This document shows, piece after piece, positions 4,137 through 53,450 of a DNA stretch of 64,000 nt. Location: the NCBI GenBank assembly GCA_963710875.1, contig CAVQBW010000005.1:272577-336576 (forward strand), read 5' to 3'. The DNA is from an uncultured Acidobacteriaceae bacterium (GTDB lineage Bacteria > Acidobacteriota > Terriglobia > Terriglobales > Acidobacteriaceae). Within the stretch, counting starts at the first letter, position 1. The number at the start of each line of letters is the position of its first letter. The notes under the pieces were generated by a model. It was given only the letters and a program-made list of their open reading frames with translations, was not told the DNA's origin and searched no databases. Position numbers and translations under genes: made by a program.

Positions 4137-5186
4137 TTGGCCGACGAGGGAAACCAGAACGAGGCGCGGCGCCGTTCGACGGCCAACCTGAGCGGGGTGC
4201 GCAAGGCTGCGGTCCTGCTGGTGGCCGTGGGCGAGGACCTGGCCAAGGAGATTCTGCGCGCCCTGCCGGAGGTGGACGTGCAGCGGCTCACCGAGGAGCT
4301 GGCCGAGCTGCGCGGCATCACGCCGGAGATGTCGGCCGCCATCCTGGAGGAGTTTTGGCAGTTGCTCGAGACGCAGAACTTCATGGTGCATGGGGGCCTG
4401 GACTACGCCAGCCGGCTGCTGATGGAGACCTTCGGCAAGGAGCGCGCCGACGACCTGCTGATGATGGTGCGCCAATCGCAGGAGGCGGCGCAGGGCAATC
4501 TGGCCAAGCTGCAGCGCACCGACCCCCAGCAGTTGGGCAAGCTGCTCGACTCGGAGCACCCGCAGACCATCGCGTTGGTCCTGGCCCATCTCGACCCGCG
4601 GCGGGCCTCGATGGTGCTGGACAATTTGGGAGAAGAACACAAGGTGCTCTCCATCCAGCGGCTGGCCGAGATGCGGCAATTCTCGCCGGAGATGGCGCAG
4701 AAGGTGGCGCATATTCTACACCGGCGCCTGGAGAGCGTAGGCGACACGGCGCGCAAGAGCTACTCGGGCTTCAAGGCGGTGGCCGATCTGCTGAACCGGC
4801 TGAATGCCGAGGAGTCGAAGAAGATTCTCGAAACCATCGAGGACGGTCAGCCGGAGCTGGCCCTGAGCATCCGCAACCTGATGTTTACCTTCGAGGACTT
4901 GGTGACGGTGCCGCCGGCCACCATCCGCGAGATCGTCTCCGGAGTGGACAAGCGGCAACTGGCGCTGGCCCTGCGCGGCACCAAGGACGAGTTGCGCGCG
5001 CAGATCTTCAAATCGATGAGCTCGCGGGCCGTCGAGATGCTGAAGGAAGACATGGAGGTTCTGGGCCCGGTACGCTCGCGCGAGGTGGCTCAGGCCCAGC
5101 AGGAGATTTTGAACCTTGCGCGGCGGCTGGAGGCCGAGGGCAAGGTGGTTCTGAAGCTCGAGACCGGCGACGAGATGCTGGCGTAA
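4137..5186 (+). CDS. fliG: Flagellar motor switch protein FliG
   Basis: SGVRKAAVLL, EHPQTIALVLAHL, MFTFEDL and MSSRAVEMLKEDME motifs; TTG start. Confidence 0.96.
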   Translation: MADEGNQNEARRRSTANLSGVRKAAVLLVAVGEDLAKEILRALPEVDVQRLTEELAELRGITPEMSAAILEEFWQLLETQNFMVHGGLDYASRLLMETFGKERADDLLMMVRQSQEAAQGNLAKLQRTDPQQLGKLLDSEHPQTIALVLAHLDPRRASMVLDNLGEEHKVLSIQRLAEMRQFSPEMAQKVAHILHRRLESVGDTARKSYSGFKAVADLLNRLNAEESKKILETIEDGQPELALSIRNLMFTFEDLVTVPPATIREIVSGVDKRQLALALRGTKDELRAQIFKSMSSRAVEMLKEDMEVLGPVRSREVAQAQQEILNLARRLEAEGKVVLKLETGDEMLA

Positions 5187-5187
5187 A

Positions 5188-5328
5188 CAGAGATCAGAGA
5201 ACAGAGATCGGTGGCACATAAAAGGGAGTCGAAGAACCGGGGGCCGAGAGCGATCAAAAGGTGGCCATCGATGTTGGAGCGGCCGATGAACTGATCCCTG
5301 ATCCCTGATCTTTGATCTCCGATCTCTG
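5188..5328. repeat. Inverted heptamer arrays (CAGAGAT)n ... (CTGATCY)n enclosing an 82-nt spacer
   Basis: Left arm 5188-5208 cagagat cagagaa cagagat; right arm 5291-5328 ctgatcc ctgatcc ctgatct ttgatct ccgatct ctg. Confidence 0.85.
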
Positions 5329-5349
5329 GCCCCTGAAAAGAGGCTTTCC

Positions 5350-6144
5350 TTGCAGCAGGCCGAAGCAGCAACGCGCAGTAGCGCCTCGGAGCTTGTCGAG
5401 CTCTTCGCCTACCCGGCGGACCCCCATGCCCCTCCGCCGCGGATGTGGCAGGGTTGGGCGAGCGCCGATGGAGCTGCCTCTGGCGCGCCCGGCAAGGCGG
5501 CGGGCGGGATTGCGGATAACCCCGGCCGCGCGGAGCACGAACAGCGGTTGGCCGAGGAGACGCGCAAAGCCTTCGAGGGCGGCCGCGAGCGGGGCCGCCA
5601 GGAGGGGGGCCAGATGGAGCGCGAGGCGCAGGCCGCCTCTCAGGCCACGGCGGAGCAGCGACGGGCCAGCCAAGCCGTCGAGCTGATCGAGAGTTTTCGC
5701 CAGGAGCGGGAACGTTTCCTGCATGCCGTCGAAGGCGAGGTGGTGAAGCTGGCGCTGGCGGTGGCGGCGCGCATTCTGCGCCGCGAGGCGCAGATGGACC
5801 CGCTGTTGCTGACCGGCGCGGTCAGGGTGGCGCTGGGACAGCTCTCCGGATCGACCCAGGTGCGGCTGCGCGTGCCGCCGGCCGAGCTTGATCTCTGGAC
5901 CGAGGCGATGGTGCTGGTGCCCAATCTGGCTGTCAAGCCCACTGTTGAGGCTGGCGAGGGAATGCGGCTGGGCGACTGCAGGATCGAGACCGGACTGGGG
6001 TCGGTGGACCTGGGAATTCGCGCCCAGTTGAGCGAGATCGAGCGGGGCTTCTTCGACCGCGCCGGAGGCACGAGAGCCACGCCCCCAATAACCGATGCCG
6101 CCGTGCCGGTTGGCGCCGCCATTAATCGGGAGGACCGCCTGTGA
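5350..6144 (+). CDS. fliH: Flagellar assembly protein FliH
   Basis: AFEGGRERGRQEG GxxxG repeats; C-terminal GDCRIETGLGSVD; between fliG and fliI. Confidence 0.88.
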   Translation: MQQAEAATRSSASELVELFAYPADPHAPPPRMWQGWASADGAASGAPGKAAGGIADNPGRAEHEQRLAEETRKAFEGGRERGRQEGGQMEREAQAASQATAEQRRASQAVELIESFRQERERFLHAVEGEVVKLALAVAARILRREAQMDPLLLTGAVRVALGQLSGSTQVRLRVPPAELDLWTEAMVLVPNLAVKPTVEAGEGMRLGDCRIETGLGSVDLGIRAQLSEIERGFFDRAGGTRATPPITDAAVPVGAAINREDRL

Positions 6145-7454
6145 CGCTGCTGCTGGCCCGTTATTTTGGCCGTTTGGAGCGCGGCCAGCCCTGGCGCTGG
6201 CGCGGGCAGGTGCTCGAATCTGTCGGCCAGACCATCGAGTCAGCGGGGCCGCTGGCCTCGGTCGGCGAGTGCTGCGAGATTCAGGACCAGTTTGGGCACG
6301 CGCATCTGGCCGAGGTGATCGGCTTTCGCGGCTCGAACGTGCTGTCGATGCCGGTCGAGAGCACCGAGGGCATCCGCTTTGGGAATACCGTCGAGGCCTT
6401 GGGCGTACATCCGGAGATCGAGGTGGGGCCGGCGCTGATGGGCCGGGTTCTGAATGCGCTGGGCGAGCCCATCGACGACGGCCCGCAGCCGGCCGTCTCC
6501 CTGGCGCTGCCTCTGGAGGGGGTGGTGCGGCGGCCGCTGGAGCGGGTGCCGATCCGCACCCCCCTGGGCACGGGAATTCGGGTTCTCGACGCGCTGCTGA
6601 CGGTGGGCCGCGGGCAGCGAGTGGGCATCTTCGGAGGTTCGGGGGTGGGCAAGAGCACGCTGATCGGCATGATGACCCGCAACACCGAGGCGGATGTGAC
6701 GGTGGTGGGCCTGGTGGGCGAGCGGGGCCGCGAGGTGGCCGAGTTCCTTGAGGATTCGCTGGGACCGGAGGGCCGGGCGCGCTCGGTGGTGGTGGTCTCG
6801 ACCTCCGACCAGTCGCCGCTGATGCGCATGAGAGCTGCCCTGGCTGCTACCACCATCGCCGAGTTCTTTGCCGATCAGGGCAAGCATGTCCTGCTGGTGC
6901 TCGACTCGCTGACCCGCTTCGCCATGGCGGCGCGGGAGATCGGCCTGGCCGCCGGAGAGCCGCCGACCAACAAGGGCTACACGCCCTCGGTCTTTACCCG
7001 CCTGGCGCGGCTGGTCGAACGCACGGGTCAGTTCCGTGTGGGTTCGATTACCGCCTTTTATACAGTTTTAATGGAGGGCGACGACCAGCAGGACCCGCTG
7101 GTCGATGCGGTCCGTGCGCTGTTGGACGGCCATGTGGTGCTCTCGCGGACGCTGGCCGCCGAGGGCTGGTACCCTCCCGTTGAGCTGCTGGACTCGATCA
7201 GCCGCTTGATGCCGGCCGTGACCCAGCCGGCGCATCGAGAGAACGCGGGGCTGCTTCGGAAGCTCGTGGCCGTCTACGCGCGCTCGGAGGATCTGGTCCG
7301 GATCGGGGCCTACAAGCCCGGCTCGGACCCGGATCTGGACCGCGCCCTCAGAGCCCGCGGGGCGATGCGGGCCTTCATGACCCAGGACTCGCGTGAGCAC
7401 GTTCGCTTTGCCGACTGCGTGAGCCGGTTGGCGGCGCTGGCCGCGGAGCTCTGA
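6141..7454 (+). CDS. fliI: Flagellar export ATPase FliI
   Basis: Walker A GGSGVGKST, DSLTRFAMAAREIGLAAGEPP and ILDGH-like LLDGHVVLSR. Confidence 0.97.
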   Translation: MTLLLARYFGRLERGQPWRWRGQVLESVGQTIESAGPLASVGECCEIQDQFGHAHLAEVIGFRGSNVLSMPVESTEGIRFGNTVEALGVHPEIEVGPALMGRVLNALGEPIDDGPQPAVSLALPLEGVVRRPLERVPIRTPLGTGIRVLDALLTVGRGQRVGIFGGSGVGKSTLIGMMTRNTEADVTVVGLVGERGREVAEFLEDSLGPEGRARSVVVVSTSDQSPLMRMRAALAATTIAEFFADQGKHVLLVLDSLTRFAMAAREIGLAAGEPPTNKGYTPSVFTRLARLVERTGQFRVGSITAFYTVLMEGDDQQDPLVDAVRALLDGHVVLSRTLAAEGWYPPVELLDSISRLMPAVTQPAHRENAGLLRKLVAVYARSEDLVRIGAYKPGSDPDLDRALRARGAMRAFMTQDSREHVRFADCVSRLAALAAEL

Positions 7455-7457
7455 GCC

Positions 7458-7994
7458 ATGGCCGCTTCGCGCGCTCTGCGGCGCCTCTTGCGCATCCGCG
7501 ATCTCGAGGAGGAGCAGTGCCGTCTGGCTCTCGAATCGGCTCTCGGCGAGCTCAGTCGCCTGGAAGATGCGCTCAAGGCCGCCGTCGACCGGGAGCGCCG
7601 GGGCCGCAGGCTGGTCCAGGCCAGCGCGCGGACGGGCGAGCTGCCGGACAGGCTGGCCGGCATCGAGGAGACGCACGCCGCCGACCGGCTCTTCGCCGTG
7701 CTTGGACCCCGCATCGCGGCCAAGGAAGAAGAGGTCGTCGCACGCCGGCAGGAGTTTCTCTTGAAGAGAGTGGAGCGGCGCCAGGCCGAGACCCTGATCG
7801 AGGAGTCCGAGGCACAGCAGGCGATCGTGACGGACCGGCGCGGCCAGCAGGAGCTGGACAACTGGTACGGCTCCCGGCAGTATCGCGAGGGAGTCGAGGC
7901 AGAGCCGCCAGCGTCAGAAGGAGCCTCCTGTCAAGCTCCGGCTGGCCCCGGAGCACGGGCCGGCCAGAACAAGTGGATTGTGGATGAAACTTGA
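7458..7994 (+). CDS. fliJ: Flagellar export chaperone FliJ
   Basis: Coiled-coil protein directly after fliI; starts with RALRRLLRIR and has a QQELD motif. Confidence 0.75.
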   Translation: MAASRALRRLLRIRDLEEEQCRLALESALGELSRLEDALKAAVDRERRGRRLVQASARTGELPDRLAGIEETHAADRLFAVLGPRIAAKEEEVVARRQEFLLKRVERRQAETLIEESEAQQAIVTDRRGQQELDNWYGSRQYREGVEAEPPASEGASCQAPAGPGARAGQNKWIVDET

Positions 7995-8084
7995 GGGAAA
8001 ATCCATCGAGAACCCAGATAGCCATCCTGAATCGGGATTTCCGGTTCCATTCCTGACAAGGTTCTAACCCCTTCCGGCATCCTT

Positions 8085-8100
8085 TGGCACGCCTTCTGCT
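8085..8100 (+). promoter_or_regulatory. Sigma-54 (-24/-12) promoter upstream of fliK-flgD-flgE
   Basis: TGGCACGCCTTCTGCT has GG and GC separated by exactly 10 nt, matching TGGCAC-N5-TTGC; intergenic in a flagellar operon that carries a bEBP. Confidence 0.8.
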
Positions 8101-8111
8101 CCACTCCCTGC

Positions 8112-10205
8112 ATGACCCTCGCCGCAGGAATCGAGATTGCAGTGGACGGAACTCCGGCGCGTGGCTCGGGCAAGCAGGCCGGAGCGATGCCCGGCACAGG
8201 ACGTGCTGGGATGGCCTCGCAAGCTCTCTTGCCTTCGATGGCTCCTGGGGCTGCTGCCGGGACCGTTGCTGAGGCGAAGAGCTTTCGCGAGGGCTGGCAA
8301 TCGCTGCTGGCCTCGCTGGACTCCAGTGCGGGAGGCCTCAGCGGGGCCGAGCCGGAGACGGGTCGAGGAACTTCATTGGCCGGATCGGCGGCCGCCGCGA
8401 AGCCGGGAGCGCGAGAGGCGGCAATCAGACCCTCCGCGGCGACTCCAGCCTTGGCCAGAGGCGGTGCTTTGAGCTTGAGGCAGGGAGCGGAAAAGAAAAG
8501 CAACGAGGCGGGCGTGGAGGCAAAACTCTCTGCTGCTTGCGCTCGGAATGAAGCCTCGCTGGCGCGTCTTGCGGACGGGGTTTCCAAGACGGCCTTCTTG
8601 AACAGAAGAATAGCCGCGGGCAGGATAGACGAGAAAAAGTCGGCGGCCGGACGGAAGTCCGAATCGGAGAGGAAGGCGCAACCAGCCCATTCCTCCCATG
8701 AGGTCAAGCTGGAGGCAGCCGTCCCGGAGGCCATGCCAGGCTTGCTCCCGTCAGCAAGTGCAACTCTTTCGATGACCGTGCCGGCGCCCGTGATTGTCCC
8801 TCCGGCGGCTCAGGGCACGAATTTCAAGGCGCATGCGGCTCCGCCCGATCTCTCTTCGGCCAAGCCCGTTCGTCGCCAACCCGCCGAAATTGCTTCCGCA
8901 TCCTTGATTCCACATCTGCCGAATCTTCCGCATCCGCCGGCCCAGAATCGCTCCAGCGCGGTTACCGCTGCGGAGCGCGCCTCGGTGCAGGAGACGGCGG
9001 ATGGAGACGAGACGCCCGCCAGACAAGAGCGGCTCATGCCTCTTCCCAGCGTGGGCGAGCCATCCGGCCCGGCACTCAACCGGATAGAACTGCCGAGTGC
9101 GCCGGAGGATGCCGAACCGGCGGGCGCGATGCGCGCCGCAAGCCTGAATCTGTCGGAAACGCCAGCAGCGCCGGCTAGGAACCCGGCTCAGACGGTTGCG
9201 CGGAGCCAGGATTCGCCACAATCGGCCGTCCCCATCCAGATTCCGGCGGAGACGACGGCACCGGGCCTGACTCTGGCATCTGCGCCGAGCCGGGACTCGT
9301 CTCAGACGCTTCAACAGAACCAAGCCGACCCTTCGACGCAGCCTGTGAAGCAGGTGGACCAGAGCGCGCCGGCCTTGATCGGCAACGCGATCCCGGATCG
9401 CCTAGCAGCCTTTGCGGGCACTGCCGCCGCCCCATTCATTCAGCCCTTGCCTGAAGTCGCGGCTGCCGGCGCTCCAGACACTGCAGTCAGCGGCAAGAGC
9501 CGGGAGTCAGGCTCTTTGCGGCCTGCGCGCGGAGCCGGCAAAGCCGGTTTGGCTGAGCAGGACGCTCACTCCGTCGAGGGACAGCCTTCCAGCCCGGCCA
9601 TGGATGCATTCGCGATGGCGCGCGATGGAGCGGGCCTTCGCGGAGCGGTGAGAGGGACCGGCGAGCCGGCGGGAGCTTTCACGGTTTCGCCGGCCAGTTC
9701 AGAGCCCCGCGAGACCTTTGCCGCGCTTGATGCAGGGGATGCGGTGGCGAAGCCGGCCTGGATTCATGCCGGGATGCAGAGGGCCGAGGCGGGCTTTGAG
9801 GATCCGGCCCTGGGCTGGGTCGGTGTCCGGGCGGATACGAGCGGGGGCGGGGTTCATGCCCAGTTGGTGCCCGGCTCGGCCGATGCAGCCCAGGCGCTGA
9901 GCGGCCACCTGGCAGGATTGAACTCCTATCTGGCAGAGCATCATACGCCGGTCGAGACGCTGACGATGGCTGCACCCGAGAGCGGGTGGGCCGGGCAGAG
10001 CGGCACGGGCGGGGGCCAGCAGATGCAGCAAGGGGCAGGGCAGCAGACGGCGCAAGGAGCCGATTCCGGCTCACAATCCAACCCACCCGGGAATGCACCG
10101 GTTCAGCCAGCGGCCATCTCCGGGCCTCCGGCATTTCACAGGGGGTTGGACGGGAGTGCGGAGGCGGCAAGGCCGGGGGGCATCCACATTTCGGTGATGG
10201 CCTGA
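8112..10205 (+). CDS. fliK: Flagellar hook-length control protein FliK (long, Ala/Pro-rich); start uncertain
   Basis: Long low-complexity N-terminal region plus a C-terminal FliK-C-like fold (LGWVGVRADTSGGGVHAQL...LAGLNSYLAE), followed by a Gln/Gly-rich tail; position before flgD. Confidence 0.82.
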   Translation: MTLAAGIEIAVDGTPARGSGKQAGAMPGTGRAGMASQALLPSMAPGAAAGTVAEAKSFREGWQSLLASLDSSAGGLSGAEPETGRGTSLAGSAAAAKPGAREAAIRPSAATPALARGGALSLRQGAEKKSNEAGVEAKLSAACARNEASLARLADGVSKTAFLNRRIAAGRIDEKKSAAGRKSESERKAQPAHSSHEVKLEAAVPEAMPGLLPSASATLSMTVPAPVIVPPAAQGTNFKAHAAPPDLSSAKPVRRQPAEIASASLIPHLPNLPHPPAQNRSSAVTAAERASVQETADGDETPARQERLMPLPSVGEPSGPALNRIELPSAPEDAEPAGAMRAASLNLSETPAAPARNPAQTVARSQDSPQSAVPIQIPAETTAPGLTLASAPSRDSSQTLQQNQADPSTQPVKQVDQSAPALIGNAIPDRLAAFAGTAAAPFIQPLPEVAAAGAPDTAVSGKSRESGSLRPARGAGKAGLAEQDAHSVEGQPSSPAMDAFAMARDGAGLRGAVRGTGEPAGAFTVSPASSEPRETFAALDAGDAVAKPAWIHAGMQRAEAGFEDPALGWVGVRADTSGGGVHAQLVPGSADAAQALSGHLAGLNSYLAEHHTPVETLTMAAPESGWAGQSGTGGGQQMQQGAGQQTAQGADSGSQSNPPGNAPVQPAAISGPPAFHRGLDGSAEAARPGGIHISVMA

Positions 10206-10916: not shown

Positions 10917-12065
10917 ATGCCCAACTTTTACATTCCGCTCAGCGGTCTCAACGCCGATTCGACGGCGCTGAACACCATTGCCAACAACCTGTCCAACATG
11001 AACACCACCGGCTTCAAGGGGCAGACGACCAACTTCAGCGACCTGTTTTACCAGCAGGCCGGCACGACCGGCTCGGGAGATGAGATTCAGGTCGGCACCG
11101 GCGTGCAGGTGGCCTCCAACAGCACCGATTTCACAGGCGGTTCGATCTCCTCGACCGGCGTCTCGACCGATGCGGCGATCGATGGCGCGGGCTTCTTTGT
11201 GCTGGACAATAACGGAAGCCAGCTCTACACCCGCGACGGCAACTTCCAAGCCAGTTCGGCCGGCACGCTGGAGAGCACCGGAGGCCAGGCGGTGATGGGC
11301 TATGCGGCAGTGAACGGCCAAGTCAATCCCGGCGGCGGGCTGACGGACGTTGTCCTTCCCATCGGGACGGTGATGCAGCCCCTGGCGACCTCGAACTTCA
11401 GCATGACCCAGAATCTGGATTCATCGGACCAGATCGGCGCCACAACCGCCGGCACGGTGACGGTTTACGATTCTCTCGGCCAAAGCTACTCCGCTACGGT
11501 GACCTACACCAAGACCGGAACGAACCAGTGGTCCTATGGCATCGCCATACCGGATACGATGACGGCGGCTCCGGCAACCGACCCTGCGGCAACTGTCCTG
11601 CCGGTGACGCCGGGCGCGGCGACCAACTCGACCACCGCCGCCGCGCTGGCGCCCAGTTCGGCCGTTTCCGCTGGGAATACGACCTACAGCTATAACTTCG
11701 GCTCCGGCGGCACGGTCGATTCCACGACGAATCTGAGCATTGCAGGATCGGTCATTTCCATTCCCAGCACGGGGGAATCGGTCAACGCGCTCGAAACACA
11801 GATCAACGCGCTTACCGCGACGACCAATGTATCGGCGAATGTGTCCACAGTAAACGGCAGCACCGTGCTGACCGTCACCGGGCCCACAGCCACCATACCG
11901 ACCGCCGCGTCGATCGGTTCGATCGTTGCGGATTTGCCGGTCTCGACCACCAGTTACGACTTCGGCTCAACGGCCACGGTCGATGCCGCGACGAGCCTGA
12001 CGATCGCCGGGCAGGATGCCACCGGTCAGCCGTCGTCGGTTACCGTGACGAGCTGGCGCCAATGA
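10917..12065 (+). CDS. flgE: Flagellar hook protein FlgE, N-terminal part (frameshift at about 12049-12062)
   Basis: LSGLNADSTALNTIANNLSNMNTTGFK, DAAIDGAGFF and YTRDGNF motifs; ends in out-of-character SWRQ*. Confidence 0.9.
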   Translation: MPNFYIPLSGLNADSTALNTIANNLSNMNTTGFKGQTTNFSDLFYQQAGTTGSGDEIQVGTGVQVASNSTDFTGGSISSTGVSTDAAIDGAGFFVLDNNGSQLYTRDGNFQASSAGTLESTGGQAVMGYAAVNGQVNPGGGLTDVVLPIGTVMQPLATSNFSMTQNLDSSDQIGATTAGTVTVYDSLGQSYSATVTYTKTGTNQWSYGIAIPDTMTAAPATDPAATVLPVTPGAATNSTTAAALAPSSAVSAGNTTYSYNFGSGGTVDSTTNLSIAGSVISIPSTGESVNALETQINALTATTNVSANVSTVNGSTVLTVTGPTATIPTAASIGSIVADLPVSTTSYDFGSTATVDAATSLTIAGQDATGQPSSVTVTSWRQ

Positions 12066-12069
12066 ATCC

Positions 12070-13086
12070 GTGGCCGCCTATTACGCCCAGGTCAATGCGG
12101 CGCTGGCGGCGGCGGCAGCAGCCGGCAACCTCACCAATGCGTCGGCGGCAAACACCGGCAACCAGTTGTCGATTGGCGGCGCGGGCATCGCGATCACCGG
12201 CAATGCCTCCCAGGATTTGAGCGCCTCCACCATCAATTACAACTTCGGATCGAGCAATGGCACGGTCGCCGCGGTCGATCCCTCGACGAATCTCGCGATT
12301 ACCGGATTGAACTCCAGCGGCGTCTCGACCAGCATCGCCGCGCCCATGGTCACCGCCGGAGAGACGGTGGCGCAATATGCCGCGGCCCTCGAAAATGCCC
12401 TGGTGGCTGCCGGCATCGGCGGTGTGACGGTCAACTCGACGGCTGGCGGCCAGTTGTCGATCACCGGCGCGAATGTCACGACCACCGGCAACCTGGTTCA
12501 GGATCCAGTGGCTTCGGCCAATGGTACCGGCACTCTCACCTTCGATGCCAACGGCAATTTGGTAAGTCCGGCGGCAAACGTAGCCAACATTACCTTTGCG
12601 GGTCTCTCCGACGGCGCAGCGCCGATGAACATGACCTGGGATCTGTTCGGCGCGAGCGGATCGGGAACCATCAGCCAGACCGCGGCCGCCTCCGGGCAAT
12701 CGGCGGAAAATGCGAACGGTTATACCAGCGGCGCCTATAACGGCTTCAGCATCGATTCGAGTGGCGTGGTATCGGCCACTTATTCTAACGGCCAGACGCA
12801 GAACGTGGCCCAACTGGGAATTGCGACGGTCAGCAACCTGCAAGGTCTGGCCGACGTAGGCTCGACCGAGTACGAAACCACCACGGCTTCGGGCCAGGCC
12901 AACGTCGGGGTGGCCGGCTCGGATGGACTGGGGACCATCGACGGCAGCTCTCTCGAGGCCTCCAACGTCAACATCTCCGCCGAGTTCTCCGACCTGATTG
13001 TGGCGCAGCGCGCCTTCGAGGCCAACGCCAAATCGGTGACAACCTTCGACACCATCACCCAGGAAACCATCAACATGATTCACTAA
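12070..13086 (+). CDS. flgE: Flagellar hook protein FlgE, C-terminal part (+1 frame relative to the N-terminal part)
   Basis: GTLTFDANGNL and SLEASNVNISAEFSDLIVAQRAFEANAKSVTT C-terminal axial-protein motif; this frame is open from 12049. Confidence 0.9.
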   Translation: MAAYYAQVNAALAAAAAAGNLTNASAANTGNQLSIGGAGIAITGNASQDLSASTINYNFGSSNGTVAAVDPSTNLAITGLNSSGVSTSIAAPMVTAGETVAQYAAALENALVAAGIGGVTVNSTAGGQLSITGANVTTTGNLVQDPVASANGTGTLTFDANGNLVSPAANVANITFAGLSDGAAPMNMTWDLFGASGSGTISQTAAASGQSAENANGYTSGAYNGFSIDSSGVVSATYSNGQTQNVAQLGIATVSNLQGLADVGSTEYETTTASGQANVGVAGSDGLGTIDGSSLEASNVNISAEFSDLIVAQRAFEANAKSVTTFDTITQETINMIH

Positions 13087-13779: not shown

Positions 13780-14130
13780 ATGGTGCGATGGAAGATCGGA
13801 TGGTTCTTTGTTTGCCTCGGGTTGACGGCCTGTCTCAGTGGCTGCCGACCGGCGCCGGCTCTCACTCCGCAAGAGGCGGAAGGGAAGCAGCTCTACGAGA
13901 TTCGCTGTGCCCACTGCCACGAATTCAACGATCTCGCTCTCAAGAAGGTTCCGCCGGACCTGCACGGCCTCTTCAACCGCAAGACCTTACCCAGCGGAGC
14001 TCCTGCGACCGACCAGGCGGTGCGTCACAATATCCTGGCGGGGAAGGGAATGATGCCGCCCTTCACAGGCCGATTCACCGACGAGCAGATGGCCGCGCTG
14101 CTGGCCTATCTGCACACCGGACTGCCCTGA
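13780..14130 (+). CDS. Monoheme c-type cytochrome, probable lipoprotein
   Basis: CAHCH heme motif, distal Met in GKGMMPPF, signal peptide ending LSGC. Confidence 0.88.
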   Translation: MVRWKIGWFFVCLGLTACLSGCRPAPALTPQEAEGKQLYEIRCAHCHEFNDLALKKVPPDLHGLFNRKTLPSGAPATDQAVRHNILAGKGMMPPFTGRFTDEQMAALLAYLHTGLP

Positions 14131-14390: not shown

Positions 14391-15914
14391 ATGCCTAAAA
14401 AGATTTGCACAAACTATGGCAAATGCGCGCTTGCTAACGCTCATGAGGACTTTTCCCATGAGAAGAGGTCGATGACCTATTGCCCACTCTGTGACAAAAG
14501 ACTCAGCCTAGTCTCACCCCCATCCAGGGATATAGCGGCCAAGATCGTCCTCGGAATCTCTACGACGTTTATTCTTTTTGTTCTCTTCGGTTACGCAGTT
14601 GAAAAGAAATGGATCAACGCTCCCGGAGACACGAACGCCGCCGAGTTGAGGAGCACCCAGCCGCCCATCCTTCGCCTGGCCGACTCGAATACCATGCAAG
14701 ACAGCCTGGGACCGGCGCTGGCCGAGGCCTTTCTCAAGGCTCAGGGAGCCAGGAATATCCAGATTATTCCCGGAGCCAATCCGCAGGAAGAGACTGTTCA
14801 GGGCGCTTTGCCCGGCGATACAAGTGTTTCGTCGATCGAGATAGCCGCTTATGGCTCTGGAAGCGCCTTTACCGCACTGGCCGAGAACCGTTGCGACATC
14901 GGGATGGCCTCGCGGAAGATGAAACCCGCCGAAGCCGGCAAGTTCGCATCGAAGGGTGACCTTCACCCGGCGGACAGCGAACATGTCCTCGGGCTTGATG
15001 GCATGGCGGTGATCGTCAACGCCTCCAATCCGCTCAGCGAACTTCGAAAAGACACGATCAAGCGAATCTTTACCGGGGAGATTACCGACTGGTCGAAGAT
15101 CGGAACTTATCGCGGCCCCATTCAGATTTACGCGAGAGACGAGGGGTCTGCGATCACCGACTCCTTCAGAAGCTCGGTGCTTTCCGGAATGGCTCTGGCG
15201 CCATCGGCCCGCATGTATGGGGACAGCAATGCGGTGACCGAGGCGGTGGCCGACGATCCGAACGGTATCGGTTTCGTAAGTTTTTCCGTCGTTCACGGCG
15301 CAAAATCCATTGCCGTATCGGACAAGGGAACCGGCGCGCTCAAGCCGACCCGGTTGACCGTCTCTACGGAAGACTACCCTCTATCGAGGCGCCTCTACCT
15401 TTACGCTTCAGCGACTCCCCACAGCTCATATACAGGGAAGTTCGTCGAGTTTGCCCTTTCCAAGGAGGGTCAGGAAGTGGTTGCGGCCAACGGCTTCGTT
15501 GCTCAGGAGGTTGTCGCAGCGCCGCAACCTGTAGCCATTACAGCTCCTGATGAGTACAAACAGTTGACCCAGGGCGCGGAACGGCTGTCTCTGGATCTTC
15601 GGTTTAACACGGGAGACCTGGCCAAAGACAGCAAGGCTCAGGCGGATTTGGACCGGGTTGTCTCCATGGTTGCCGACGAAGGGGGCGCGAAGGACCGCAT
15701 TCTGCTCTTCGGCTTTACCGACAACAGCGGCAGCGCCGACGACAGTCAGACCGCATCGTTGAACCGGGCCAAGCTGGTCGAGAAGGAGTTTATCCAGCGG
15801 GGCATCAAGCCAGCGGTCGTCAAGGGCTTTGGTTCCGAGCTTCCCGTTGCCTCAAACGACACAGCCGAAGGCCGCGCGATGAACCGGCGCGTCGAGATCT
15901 GGATGAAGAAGTGA
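14391..15914 (+). CDS. Zn-ribbon / TM / PstS-like periplasmic binding domain / OmpA-like peptidoglycan-binding protein, copy 1
   Basis: N-terminal CTNYGKC...CPLC, one TM, PBP fold (CDIGMASR, GLDGMAVIVN, YPLSRRLYLY) and OmpA C-terminus (GFTDNSGS...NRRVEI). ORF track start is 14367; ATG 14391 is preferred. Confidence 0.85.
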   Translation: MPKKICTNYGKCALANAHEDFSHEKRSMTYCPLCDKRLSLVSPPSRDIAAKIVLGISTTFILFVLFGYAVEKKWINAPGDTNAAELRSTQPPILRLADSNTMQDSLGPALAEAFLKAQGARNIQIIPGANPQEETVQGALPGDTSVSSIEIAAYGSGSAFTALAENRCDIGMASRKMKPAEAGKFASKGDLHPADSEHVLGLDGMAVIVNASNPLSELRKDTIKRIFTGEITDWSKIGTYRGPIQIYARDEGSAITDSFRSSVLSGMALAPSARMYGDSNAVTEAVADDPNGIGFVSFSVVHGAKSIAVSDKGTGALKPTRLTVSTEDYPLSRRLYLYASATPHSSYTGKFVEFALSKEGQEVVAANGFVAQEVVAAPQPVAITAPDEYKQLTQGAERLSLDLRFNTGDLAKDSKAQADLDRVVSMVADEGGAKDRILLFGFTDNSGSADDSQTASLNRAKLVEKEFIQRGIKPAVVKGFGSELPVASNDTAEGRAMNRRVEIWMKK

Positions 15915-15923
15915 TGCGGCGTG

Positions 15924-15960
15924 GCGAGTTGACCGCAAATTGTAACGGCGGTCGACTCGC
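15924..15960. terminator. 13-bp stem hairpin after copy 1
   Basis: GCGAGTTGACCGC...GCGGTCGACTCGC with one G-U pair. Confidence 0.5.
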
Positions 15961-16218
15961 AGATGGATTGCCTGCAATCGAGGAAAGGGTATTCACATTT
16001 CGTTGATGATCCGCACCGACGCCACGAACTACTGTGTGCGGAGTGACTATTCTATAACCCCCGCGCAGGCGTTGCCACCGGAATAGCGGAACGTTCGTCG
16101 TACCTGGCCTTGGCAAGCCTTCAGGCGGGCTTTACTCAATGAGATTGGGTTAGCGGCCGTTCCTTTGGCCGGATGACAAAAGAGACAAGCGGCAATAGGC
16201 CGAAAGGCAGGAGAATCG

Positions 16219-17742
16219 ATGGTAATAGCGCGGCAGGGGAAGTGTGCAAATCTGAAGAAATGTCCGGTGTCCAGAACAAATGAGATTCATACGATCCCAG
16301 CGGGCTCGGATTTCGACTGTCCGGTATGCGGACAAGAATTGCAGGAAATTGCAGCCAAGGCCCGGCCGAAACCCATTCGGTCCATTCATGTAGCGGCGGC
16401 AGTTTTGCTGTTGCTCGTTGGTGGGCTTGCCATCTCAAAGAACTGGATCAAGCTGCCGTTGCGGGTTAATGCTGCCGATTCAATGAGAGGGGAGAACACG
16501 ATCCTTCGATTGTCAGGCTCCAACACCATCGGAGAGACCCTGATGCCCGCGCTGGCCGAGGCTTTCCTAAAAAGTCGCGGAGCCACGGGTGTCCATACGG
16601 TTGACGGGTCCAAGGCCCAGGAGAAGTTCGTTCTAGGCACACTGCCTGGCGATACAGTCCCTTCGTCGATTCGAGTTGCGGCGCATGGTTCGGCAACCGC
16701 CTTCACCTCTCTGGCTGACAACAGTTGCGACATCGGCATGGCGTCCAGGCGAATCAAGCCGGATGAAGCGTCCAAGCTCTCGTCACTGGGCGACATGCTT
16801 TCTCCCACGAACGAACATATCGTGGGCCTGGATGGTATCGCCGTAATTGTCAATTCAGCCAATCCTCTTAACGAGCTCTCCAAAGACGAAATCATGCGCA
16901 TCTTCACGGGTGAATCAGCCGACTGGCCCAAGGGTTCCCTTGGAAGAGTCACGGTGTATGCCAGAGACGATAAATCCGGAACCTACGACACTTTCAAGAG
17001 CCTCGTTCTTGCTGGGAAACCATTGTCGGCTGCTGCCAAGCGCTTCGAGAACAGCGATGAGCTATCGGATGCTGTTGCCAACGATCCCAATGGAATCGGA
17101 TTCATCGGCCTTCCTTTCGTTCATAGCGCCAAACCCCTGGCAGTCTCGGAGAAGGGAACGCGGGCGCTGTTGCCTACCAAGTTGACGGTTGCCACCGAAG
17201 ACTATTCACTCTCCAGAAGACTCTATCTCTACACTCCCGCCACCCCCGCCAATCAGCTCACGCGGCCTTTCATTGACTTTGTTCTTTCAAAGCAAGGTCA
17301 AGACCTGGTTGCTGAAAACGGATTCGTTGCCCAGAATATTGCGAAGGAATCGCAAGCTGTCGCCGAAGATGCACCGGCCGACTATAAGAAGTTGACGCAG
17401 AACGCAGAGCGTCTTTCTTTGGACTTCAGGTTTCAGGCTGGTCAATCATTGCAGGACAACAAAGCTCAAGTTGATATGGACAGGGTTGTGTCTATGATTT
17501 TTGATCAAGGGGCAACGGGACAAAAGATCTTGCTGCTCGGATTTGCCGACAGCGTCGGCAGCAACGCCTCGAATCAAGCTCTTTCGCTGAACAGGGCCAG
17601 GATTATCGAAAGCGAACTTGTCCGGCGTGGCCTGAAACCCGCAGTGGTTCGGGGGTTTGGCTCCGAGCTTCCAGTGGCTTCGAACGACACAGCCGATGGC
17701 CGCGAGAAGAACCGGCGCGTTGAGATCTGGATCGAAAACTGA
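16219..17742 (+). CDS. Zn-ribbon / TM / PstS-like periplasmic binding domain / OmpA-like peptidoglycan-binding protein, copy 2
   Basis: CANLKKC...CPVC, TM, LSGSNTIG, RDDKSGT, YSLSRRLYLY and GFADSVGS...NRRVEI; AGGAG RBS. Confidence 0.88.
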   Translation: MVIARQGKCANLKKCPVSRTNEIHTIPAGSDFDCPVCGQELQEIAAKARPKPIRSIHVAAAVLLLLVGGLAISKNWIKLPLRVNAADSMRGENTILRLSGSNTIGETLMPALAEAFLKSRGATGVHTVDGSKAQEKFVLGTLPGDTVPSSIRVAAHGSATAFTSLADNSCDIGMASRRIKPDEASKLSSLGDMLSPTNEHIVGLDGIAVIVNSANPLNELSKDEIMRIFTGESADWPKGSLGRVTVYARDDKSGTYDTFKSLVLAGKPLSAAAKRFENSDELSDAVANDPNGIGFIGLPFVHSAKPLAVSEKGTRALLPTKLTVATEDYSLSRRLYLYTPATPANQLTRPFIDFVLSKQGQDLVAENGFVAQNIAKESQAVAEDAPADYKKLTQNAERLSLDFRFQAGQSLQDNKAQVDMDRVVSMIFDQGATGQKILLLGFADSVGSNASNQALSLNRARIIESELVRRGLKPAVVRGFGSELPVASNDTADGREKNRRVEIWIEN

Positions 17743-17823
17743 TGCGGCTGGGCCGCGATTGGCGCGTCCGGCTCCGCAGGGAGCGAGGATCAAAACGCCA
17801 ATCGCGGTATACTCAGAATTGTT

Positions 17824-52448: not shown

Positions 52449-53450
52449 CTACTGCAGCGAATAGACGGTCTTCAGTACCTTTTCCGCCACATTATCAGGC
52501 AGCGGCGCATAGGAGAGAGCGGAGACTTCGCTCTCGCCCGACTTGACGATCCAGCTCAGCAGATCCTTGAGAACCTTGCCCTTCACCGGATCGGCGGCAT
52601 GAATGGGAATCAGCAGATAGGTGAAGCTGGAGATGGGATAGGAGCCAGCGCCGGGAGCGTTGGTGATCGAGACACGGTAGTCGGCGGGCATATCCTTCAC
52701 GTTGGCAGCCGCCTCGGTGACGCCACTGATAGAGGCCTTCAACCAGTTACCCGCGGCATTCTGCACTTCGCCGTAGCTCATATTGTTTTGCAGGGCATAG
52801 ATCAACTCGACATAGCCGACTGCGCCAGGCAACTGGCGAACCAGGCCGGCCACGCCCTCATTGCCTTTGCCGCCAACCCCGACCGGCCAACTGGGCGAGG
52901 TGCCTTTGCTGGGGCCGCTGGCCCACTCTTTACTCACCTTGCTCAGGAAGTCGGTCCAGATGAAGCTGGTGCCGCTGCCGTCCGAACGATGAACGACGAT
53001 GATCTTCTGGTCGGGCAGCTTCACGCCGGGGTTGTCCTTGGCGATGCGCGCATCGTTCCAGTTGTTGACCTTGCCCAGGTAGATATCGGCCAGCAGCTCA
53101 CCGCTGAACCTGAGATCGTTGACGCCGGGAACATTGAAGACAGGCACAACAGCTCCCAGCACGGTGGGAATGTGGATCAGCTTGACCTTGGAACTGGCGA
53201 GCATCTCGTCGGTCATGGGCATGTCGGAGGCGCCGAAGTCCACAAGGCCTGAGGTGACCTGGCGGATGCCGCCGCCAGAGCCGATCGACTGGTAGTTGAT
53301 CTCGACGCCGGGATGGGCGGCGCTATACTCGCTGAACCACTTCGAGTAGATCGGGTAGGGGAAAGTCGCACCCGCTGCGGTCAATTTCTGAGCCTGAGCC
53401 GTGCTCAAGGCCAACAACGACAACACTAAAGCAACCAGAATCTTTTTCAC
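52449..53450 (-). CDS. pstS: Phosphate ABC transporter substrate-binding protein
   Basis: AGATFPYP, YQSIGSGGG, DFGASD, RSDGSGT and GNEGV motifs. Confidence 0.95.
   Translation of the reverse strand: MKKILVALVLSLLALSTAQAQKLTAAGATFPYPIYSKWFSEYSAAHPGVEINYQSIGSGGGIRQVTSGLVDFGASDMPMTDEMLASSKVKLIHIPTVLGAVVPVFNVPGVNDLRFSGELLADIYLGKVNNWNDARIAKDNPGVKLPDQKIIVVHRSDGSGTSFIWTDFLSKVSKEWASGPSKGTSPSWPVGVGGKGNEGVAGLVRQLPGAVGYVELIYALQNNMSYGEVQNAAGNWLKASISGVTEAAANVKDMPADYRVSITNAPGAGSYPISSFTYLLIPIHAADPVKGKVLKDLLSWIVKSGESEVSALSYAPLPDNVAEKVLKTVYSLQ

Follow-up and report, generated by a model that had tools for sequence, protein, structure and literature searches.

Tandem proteins with a four-cysteine head, a PstS-like domain and an OmpA-like domain in an Acidobacteriaceae genome: candidate trans-envelope receptors or scaffolds

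A 64,000-nucleotide (nt) stretch of contig CAVQBW010000005.1 from an uncultured Acidobacteriaceae bacterium, referred to in the following as the window, carries two neighboring paralogous open reading frames (ORFs) on one strand, each encoding a protein of 507 amino acids (aa). Coordinates are positions in the window unless they are preceded by a locus or contig label. The upstream paralog is referred to as P0001 (“ZnB” type) and the downstream paralog as P0002 (“ZnA” type). The two proteins are 52% identical over 501 aa and share four parts: a four-cysteine head, a single transmembrane (TM) helix, a domain resembling the phosphate-binding protein PstS, and an OmpA-like domain (Table 1). This agrees with a preliminary description of the sequence, which had proposed two four-part paralogs of about 510 aa with the same TGCGGC after both stops; TGA followed by TGCGGC was found at both genes. 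The start chosen there for P0001, at 14391, fits the family alignment (MPKKIC...) and has GGAAGGA upstream. Both proteins matched PBP_like_2 (PF12849; 91.5 bits for P0001 and 89.4 for P0002, cut-off 27) and OmpA (PF00691; 45.3 and 54.0 bits, cut-off 27.2). The AlphaFold2 (AF2) model of P0002 had a mean predicted local distance difference test score (pLDDT) of 72.

Table 1. Positions of the paralogous genes, their parts and the adjoining cytochrome gene in the window.
Feature	Positions	Strand	Remarks
Small c-type cytochrome gene	13780..14130	+	Directly upstream of the pair; syntenic in Terracidiphilus; no functional link shown
Upstream paralog P0001 (ZnB)	14391..15914	+	Zinc head, one TM helix, PstS-like and OmpA-like domains; longest ORF runs from 14367
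P0001 four-cysteine cytoplasmic head (ICTNYGKC...CPLC)	14391..14519	+	61 bits to head profile
P0001 predicted single TM helix	14538..14600 (approximate)	+	Hydropathy
P0001 PstS-like (PBP_like_2) periplasmic domain	14655..15506 (approximate)	+	Pfam and NCBIfam, alignment
P0001 OmpA-like peptidoglycan-binding-type domain	15609..15911	+	Domain search
P0001 stop TGA, then TGCGGC	15912..15920	+	Motif common to both paralogs
Downstream paralog P0002 (ZnA)	16219..17742	+	Four parts; motifs GSNT, HGS, DIGMASR and ARDDKSGT kept
P0002 four-cysteine head (C9, C15, C34, C37)	16219..16353	+	Conservation, AF2
P0002 predicted single TM helix, residues 55-73	16381..16437	+	AF2 and hydropathy; K/R-rich residues before
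P0002 PstS-like Venus-flytrap domain, residues 94-370	16498..17328	+	Pfam, profile, Foldseek
P0002 OmpA-like domain, residues 396-506	17404..17736	+	Motifs GFADxxGS...N..LSxxRA and NRRVEI
P0002 stop TGA, then TGCGGC	17740..17748	+	Start of a 5-bp GC hairpin (GCGGC TGG GCCGC)

The preliminary description had seen a Cx5-6C...CxxC ribbon at the N-terminus and had named unconserved cysteines as a result that would speak against it. The pattern in both proteins is C-x5-C...C-x2-C. C9, C15 and C34 were invariant among 28 full-length relatives and C37 was kept in at least 90% of them, and all four cysteines were invariant in 30 diverse heads from Acidobacteriota, Pseudomonadota and Chloroflexota. Residues 1–45 of P0002 were beta-rich in the whole-protein AF2 model, with pLDDT of 78–88; when modeled in isolation the head had a pLDDT of 85 and consisted of three strands and one short helix. 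No Pfam model scored above its cut-off on the head, where sub-threshold matches were limited to the CPxCG knuckle. We also tried to assign the head to a fold class with Foldseek, which gave no significant match (all E > 1), although the top matches were zinc-ribbon proteins. The head is a distinct domain, previously unmodeled in Pfam, and probably binds zinc.

The head was also modeled as a profile of 44 positions. Among 1.84 billion representative proteins, this profile matched 994 clusters with E ≤ 1e-3, of which 151 had E ≤ 1e-10, and the match nearly always fell on residues 2–45. When 93 head proteins of at least 180 aa were scanned with Pfam, the domains found were PBP_like_2 (16), Big_2 (12), OmpA (11), MORN (6), TPR (5), DUF4384 (5), SBP_bac_3 (2), LysM (2), an FGE-sulfatase domain (1) and Sel1 (1). 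A single hydrophobic segment followed within 80 residues of the head in 108 of the 119 head proteins long enough to judge. The N-terminal profile, which had been proposed at the outset as a way to catalog partner domains, showed that the head recurs with one TM segment and varied ectodomains. Within the source genome, P0001 and P0002 were the only proteins that the profile found. Some proteins of 240–310 aa carry two copies of the head (P0122, P0125, P0144), and in an Acetobacteraceae metagenome-assembled genome (L086:8135-11251) a TonB_C protein with a Cx5C...CxxC head lies directly upstream of a zinc-headed PstS–OmpA gene.

The hydrophobic helix that follows the head (residues 55–73 of P0002) is predicted by AF2 and by hydropathy. 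The lysine and arginine residues before it suggest that the N-terminus lies inside the cell. By hydropathy, the TM segments of P0001 and P0002 have no acidic residue within the helix core. A possible cleavage site, VNA|AD, is located 13 residues past the TM helix.

With the NCBIfam PstS family model TIGR02136, the two proteins scored 153.7 and 154.5 bits, below its cut-off of 206.6, and neither matched TIGR00975. The family profile matched the solved PstS structures 4q8r/4gd5 at E of about 1e-31, and a Foldseek search with the P0002 model returned the PstS structures 1twy, 9l8j and 4gd5 at E of about 1e-13. Four motifs are kept across phyla and head types: GSNT(I/L/V)G, (A/S)HGS, D-I-G-M-(A/S)-S-R and A-R-D-x-K-S-G-T. 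In the family profile, the last three line up with the loops through which structurally characterized PstS proteins bind phosphate. P0002 thus retains Ser, Asp, Arg and Ser-Gly-Thr as ligand positions, and its mappable loop residues are S158, D171, R249 and S253-G254-T255. The first loop, GSNT, has an Asn that is invariant across the family and could not be mapped onto solved PstS by sequence; an attempt to place this N-lobe loop on structures from the PDB in that way failed. Its position at a strand-to-helix turn in the P0002 model (E94-100, H102-119) suggests its role as a binding loop. P0001 has SAI in place of the SGT loop, as well as a G100D change. Judging from these loops, P0002 probably binds phosphate or a phosphoryl group. 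P0001 appears to have lost part of the anion site and is probably a non-binding or differently binding partner of P0002.

The OmpA-like domain scored above the PF00691 cut-off and has the Asp and Arg of the motif: among the 28 full-length relatives, D444 was invariant and R459 was found in at least 90%. The domain keeps GFADxxG...N..LSxxRA and NRRVEI and aligned best with the peptidoglycan-binding domains of TagL, OmpA and Rv0899 (E of 4e-11 to TagL, 5m38/7bba). It is therefore predicted to bind peptidoglycan.

A word-index search gave at least 3551 relatives, all with PF12849 and PF00691. We then scanned one genome per species, which yielded 589 confirmed relatives, and kept the best 80 loci, which span Acidobacteriota, Pseudomonadota, Verrucomicrobiota, Thermodesulfobacteriota, Myxococcota and Chloroflexota. 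The PstS and OmpA part of the relatives is 42–63% identical to that of P0002 over about 410 residues. Among the loci analyzed, the Cx5C...CxxC head was found in 42 family members. A Ser/Thr kinase (Pkinase) head was found at 14 loci in Verrucomicrobiota, Thermodesulfobacteriota, Myxococcota and Acidobacteriota, with carriers that include Trichlorobacter thiogenes, Vitiosangium, Akkermansiaceae, Chthoniobacterales, Blastocatellia and Pyrinomonadaceae. In two Acidobacteriota (L056:9431-11431 and L059:9338-11431), a PilZ domain stands where the zinc head would be, giving the order PilZ–TM–PstS–OmpA. One Desulfocapsaceae genome has a Response_reg and DUF4388 head, one Pyrinomonadaceae genome has a different zinc ribbon (Zn_Ribbon_1), and Gammaproteobacteria have unassigned heads of about 115 aa. 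In Pseudomonas and others, a signal peptide is the sole N-terminal addition. A hydropathy scan placed a TM segment between the head and the PstS-like domain in six of seven kinase or receiver forms. P0001 and P0002 themselves had no kinase domain in a Pfam scan, so that what they have in common with their receptor-kinase relatives is the ectodomain alone, at 45–50% identity.

On a maximum-likelihood tree of the ectodomains, the kinase-headed and zinc-headed forms interleave, and the kinase heads require at least 2–4 changes; two kinase forms from Acidobacteriota nest inside the clade of zinc-headed Acidobacteriota proteins. This repeated joining to kinase, c-di-GMP receptor and receiver heads suggests that the ectodomain is best read as a part used in trans-envelope signaling. 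Two oddities were noted among the relatives: a Thiohalomonadaceae contig (L099:5611-13776) has two signal-peptide PstS–OmpA genes in tandem and, close by, a third PstS-like gene that is shorter, and a zinc-headed ORF from Solibacteraceae (L050:3012-5537) encodes 841 aa, of which about 340 aa lie beyond the OmpA-like domain and have no Pfam match. The family is labeled “phosphate transport system substrate-binding protein” by JGI and [quoted passage not shown] by NCBI. The existence of the NCBI name means that the two-domain architecture has already been cataloged. A literature search found no published characterization of PstS–OmpA fusions, of PstS-like kinases or of the NCBI-named family.

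P0001 belongs to a monophyletic ZnB clade of eight proteins (support 98/91 on the ectodomain tree), which is specific to Terracidiphilus and nested among ZnA proteins of Terracidiphilus and Acidobacteriaceae such as P0002. The Thr of the SGT loop is replaced by Ile or Val in all eight members, and most are also altered in the first loop (G100D or N102D/G), whereas all four head cysteines are kept in every one. Wherever the contig permits a check, the ZnB gene has a ZnA gene as its same-strand neighbor, either upstream or downstream of it. Since the ZnB clade is common to eight loci, the duplication must be old and predate the source genome. That the copy has been kept despite its degenerate site suggests a partner or regulatory role; ZnB is probably a co-receptor, and it may pair or form heterodimers with ZnA.

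Carriers were 6 of the 24 other genomes from the genus, none of 16 from the sister family and 2 of 300 high-quality genomes drawn from the phylum as a whole, and this patchy distribution marks the gene as accessory. The GC content at third codon positions (GC3) is 0.681 for P0001 and 0.604 for P0002, compared with 0.76–0.80 in the immediate flanks, and the two genes rank at the 32nd and 11th percentile, respectively, among 2343 ORFs of the genome. Both are thus richer in AT than their neighbors, as had been noticed at first reading, but they are ordinary for the genome and not compositional outliers. The accompanying suggestion that the genes were horizontally acquired and duplicated holds for the duplication and fits the patchy distribution, but the case for recent transfer is weak, with ordinary GC3, conserved synteny and an old duplication. 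Recent horizontal transfer on the grounds of composition was therefore rejected.

Upstream of the pair lie fliK, flgD and a split flgE, followed by a thioesterase gene on the opposite strand and the cytochrome gene (Table 1), which is 68% identical to its counterpart in locus L026. Downstream lie miaB, a bifunctional-nuclease-domain gene, an alcohol-dehydrogenase-like gene and a MacB-like permease gene. The order in Terracidiphilus is flgE, thioesterase (opposite strand), superoxide dismutase, cytochrome c, one or two family genes, miaB and the nuclease-domain gene. The Fe/Mn superoxide dismutase gene of the relatives is missing from the window, and the sole dismutase match in the genome is on contig C1. 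Nothing ties these syntenic neighbors functionally to the pair. The flgE gene (10917–13086) is split into ORFs at 10917–12065 and 12070–13086 in different frames, reflecting either a frameshift or an assembly indel, and, compared with the FlgE encoded on a related contig, it contains some 225 additional aa as an insert.

No ATP-binding cassette (ABC) permease or ATPase gene adjoins the pair, so that the initial remark on the absence of such genes stands for its neighbors, and none of the about 80 related loci has an adjacent pstCAB. A canonical pstS (TIGR00975, 375 bits) stands alone at 52449–53450 (−) in the window, and pstC, pstA and pstB are on another contig (C7:607783-610354) with no adjoining pstS. 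Together with the scores below the PstS cut-off, this indicates that the pair is not the phosphate transporter of the genome. We also compared upstream regions for a possible Pho-box. The 10-mer TATTCACATT is common to the upstream regions of P0002 and pstC, and ACATTGACC to those of pstC and pstS. Neither of these, nor a PhoP-like repeat pattern, was found upstream of any of 83 related genes, and the motifs were therefore judged to be due to chance.

A partner gene conserved across the related loci was not found. The conserved neighbors in other clades are unrelated genes (TamAB, acyl-CoA dehydrogenase, FTR1, MacB, PBP2, GidA and a helicase). The only recurrent neighbor outside conserved synteny is Tubulin_2 (FtsZl1), of about 1000 aa, whose gene ends 1–24 nt before a zinc-headed family gene in six loci (L021 [4991-9521], L037, L047, L049, L050 and L051) from different parts of the tree, one of them from Comamonas. 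This spacing suggests that the tubulin and family genes are translationally coupled. Locus L021 also has a ParG-like gene and an integrase gene nearby. FtsZl1 neighborhoods have been described as including vWA, OmpA-family and kinase genes, the OmpA proteins there being MotB-like with MotA/ExbB partners (Makarova and Koonin 2010, PMC2875224). The six loci resemble that system in having Tubulin_2, unlike the source genome, which is 97.8% complete and gave no match to Tubulin_2 (PF13809). None of 14 Tubulin_2 loci in nine other Acidobacteriota genomes had a head-bearing neighbor. FtsZl1 was therefore rejected as a general partner of the head; with the pairing confined to six loci, it is at most a lineage-specific one. 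A search for anti-phage defense systems with PADLOC gave weak ZorB/MotB matches on the OmpA-like domain only, and this candidate was also rejected.

Taking these results together, we put the chances at about even that the pair is a trans-envelope receptor or scaffold and does not supply the substrate-binding component of an ABC importer. The preliminary description had proposed just this, a wall-anchored receptor or scaffold not involved in transport, and it gains support from the head swapping, from the PstS scores below cut-off and from the separate PstS and PstCAB of the genome. The head swapping in particular, as far as sequence comparison goes, favors trans-envelope signaling or scaffolding over ABC transport. 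In such an arrangement, each protein would pass once through the inner membrane with its N-terminus inside the cell and would reach from the cytoplasm to the wall, with the probably zinc-binding four-cysteine head in the cytoplasm, the Venus-flytrap domain in the periplasm and the OmpA-like domain fixed to peptidoglycan. P0002 would bind phosphate or a phosphoryl group, with P0001 as its non-binding or differently binding partner. Since the wall would hold the C-terminus in place, the TM helix could convey the opening and closing of the flytrap to the head, or convey a signal the other way, and the head would engage a cytoplasmic partner. What the sequences themselves show is the architecture, the residue conservation, the head swapping in relatives and the lack of adjoining transporter genes; the ligand, binding to zinc and to peptidoglycan, the pairing of the paralogs, and the direction and output of signaling are all parts of this scheme that we infer.

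A more specific version, which we hold to be rather doubtful, is that PstS plus OmpA forms a wall-braced flytrap switch with interchangeable output, input and zinc heads. Because the wall would hold the C-terminus, the TM helix would then be moved mechanically whenever the flytrap closes on phosphate or on some phosphorylated component of the wall; Ser/Thr kinase heads would serve as outputs, and PilZ and receiver heads as inputs. The Cx5C...CxxC head would dock cytoskeletal or other partners, among them the FtsZl1 tubulin in some lineages, and in Terracidiphilus the intact receptor would form a heterodimer with its binding-dead paralog.

Several observations weigh against a receptor or scaffold. 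The head is also found on structural or adhesive ectodomains (Big_2, TPR, LysM and TonB_C) and may be a mere anchor or topology element. It is a general N-terminal cap that many single-pass envelope proteins share in the cytoplasm, which weakens the case for a dedicated signaling output and leaves anchoring, topology or partner docking as its role. PilZ and receiver heads are inputs, which makes the direction of signaling ambiguous; some members may signal inward and others outward. The forms that have a signal peptide alone imply that the core module can work without a cytoplasmic part, which would fit a purely periplasmic role. The first binding loop of the family, whose mapping onto structures by sequence failed, carries an invariant Asn in place of the Thr or Ser of PstS. 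Finally, the related loci revealed no conserved partner gene.

Two other roles have to be considered, both of them unlikely in our judgment. One is that the proteins are tethered PstS variants that concentrate periplasmic phosphate for PstCAB or another importer, with the zinc head as a membrane anchor only. The conserved binding-loop motifs, which align with PstS structures holding phosphate, speak for this role, as do the signal-peptide-only forms, the names given by annotation pipelines and the lack of a pstS next to pstCAB in the source genome. However, the genome has a bona fide PstS, the pair itself scores below the PstS family cut-off, and adjoining pstCAB genes were found in none of the about 80 loci. 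The kinase, PilZ and receiver fusions are also hard to square with a scavenger, a protein held at both ends could presumably hardly dock on a permease, and ZnB has been maintained despite the loss of a ligand residue. The other role, which we consider equally improbable, is a structural one, in which the proteins staple the inner membrane to peptidoglycan and the PstS fold binds some phosphorylated part of the envelope (for example a lipid head group, polymer or precursor), with no signal passed on; the head would then fix the topology or cluster the proteins. The head and TM segment are indeed common with scaffold-like ectodomains (Big_2, TPR, MORN, Sel1, LysM and TonB_C), the peptidoglycan-binding motif residues are kept, and the invariant Asn of the first loop may point to a ligand other than free phosphate. 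On the other hand, the orthologous modules bear signaling heads and not structural ones, and the rarity and patchiness of the gene (about 1% of sampled Acidobacteriota) argue against a core structural role.

That the pair serves as an accessory anchor, either MotY- or MotB-like for the flagellar apparatus or TagL-like for a type VI secretion system (T6SS), appears to us highly improbable. The genes do lie downstream of fliK–flgD–flgE here and in relatives, and their OmpA-like domain resembles those of TagL, MotB and MotY. However, the position after flgE is kept only within the genus and unrelated genes intervene, namely the opposite-strand thioesterase and cytochrome c genes and, in relatives, superoxide dismutase; outside the genus, no flagellar or T6SS neighbors were seen at the related loci. 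A flagellar link was rejected on these grounds. A T6SS link was likewise rejected for the source genome, where the sheath gene tssC is on contig C7 and the TIGR03350 scores of the pair (42.9 and 45.6 bits) are far from the cut-off of 139.8. Nor was there a MotA/ExbB gene nearby or an acidic residue in the TM segment.

The combination of parts sets the proteins apart from the known systems that they resemble. PstS (4gd5/4q8r, 1twy, 4omb) has the same type-II binding-protein fold, and its GS, D-I-G-M-x-S-R and R-x-x-x-S-G-T loops align with those of the window proteins. These differ from PstS in an extra beta-hairpin, loop insertions and the invariant Asn of the first loop, in the fusion to a TM helix, a cytoplasmic head and an OmpA anchor, in the lack of an adjoining pstCAB and, for ZnB, in the lack of the loop Thr. 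MotB and TagL/long TssL likewise have a single N-in TM helix and a C-terminal OmpA-like domain with the D/R motif, but the window proteins hold a 280-aa flytrap between the helix and the anchor. The features of MotB/TolR/ExbD stator proteins, a TM aspartate and a MotA/TolQ/ExbB neighbor, were not found, the neighbors being cytochrome c, miaB and thioesterase genes. The comparison with MotB, TagL and the T6SS in the preliminary description therefore stays an analogy, given also the location of the T6SS on another contig.

Bacterial receptor Ser/Thr kinases and other sensors with Venus-flytrap ectodomains exist, and the PstS of P. aeruginosa acts as the ligand-loaded partner of the chemoreceptor CtpL. 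These systems likewise use a binding-protein fold as their sensory input, and the direct relatives of the window proteins include kinases of this type that share their ectodomain. The window proteins differ in having a 45-aa zinc head instead of a kinase and an ectodomain that is presumably also fixed to peptidoglycan, an arrangement that to our knowledge is not found among characterized flytrap sensors. A peptidoglycan-binding domain in envelope signaling has a precedent in YfiB, the OmpA-like lipoprotein of the YfiBNR system. In inside-out receptors of the LapD type, a cytoplasmic c-di-GMP input controls a periplasmic domain, a case that the PilZ-headed relatives would fit. Sequence kinship to YfiB and LapD extends only to the OmpA-like domain, and the partners and topology differ.

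Bacterial phosphate sensing is thought to be indirect, through PstSCAB, PhoU and PhoR. If our reading is correct, this widespread, wall-fixed family, which joins a PstS-type domain directly to kinases, c-di-GMP receptors or receivers, would represent a direct and separate route that couples periplasmic phosphate or the state of the wall to the cytoplasm. What is new here is the combination of a PstS-type domain and an OmpA-type anchor in a presumptive sensor, together with a previously unmodeled zinc head. The automatic annotation of the family as a transporter component is probably misleading. The newly defined module of zinc head plus TM segment, with about 1000 protein clusters, marks a class of single-pass envelope proteins, and the cultured kinase-headed relatives, Trichlorobacter thiogenes and Vitiosangium, allow these ideas to be tested.

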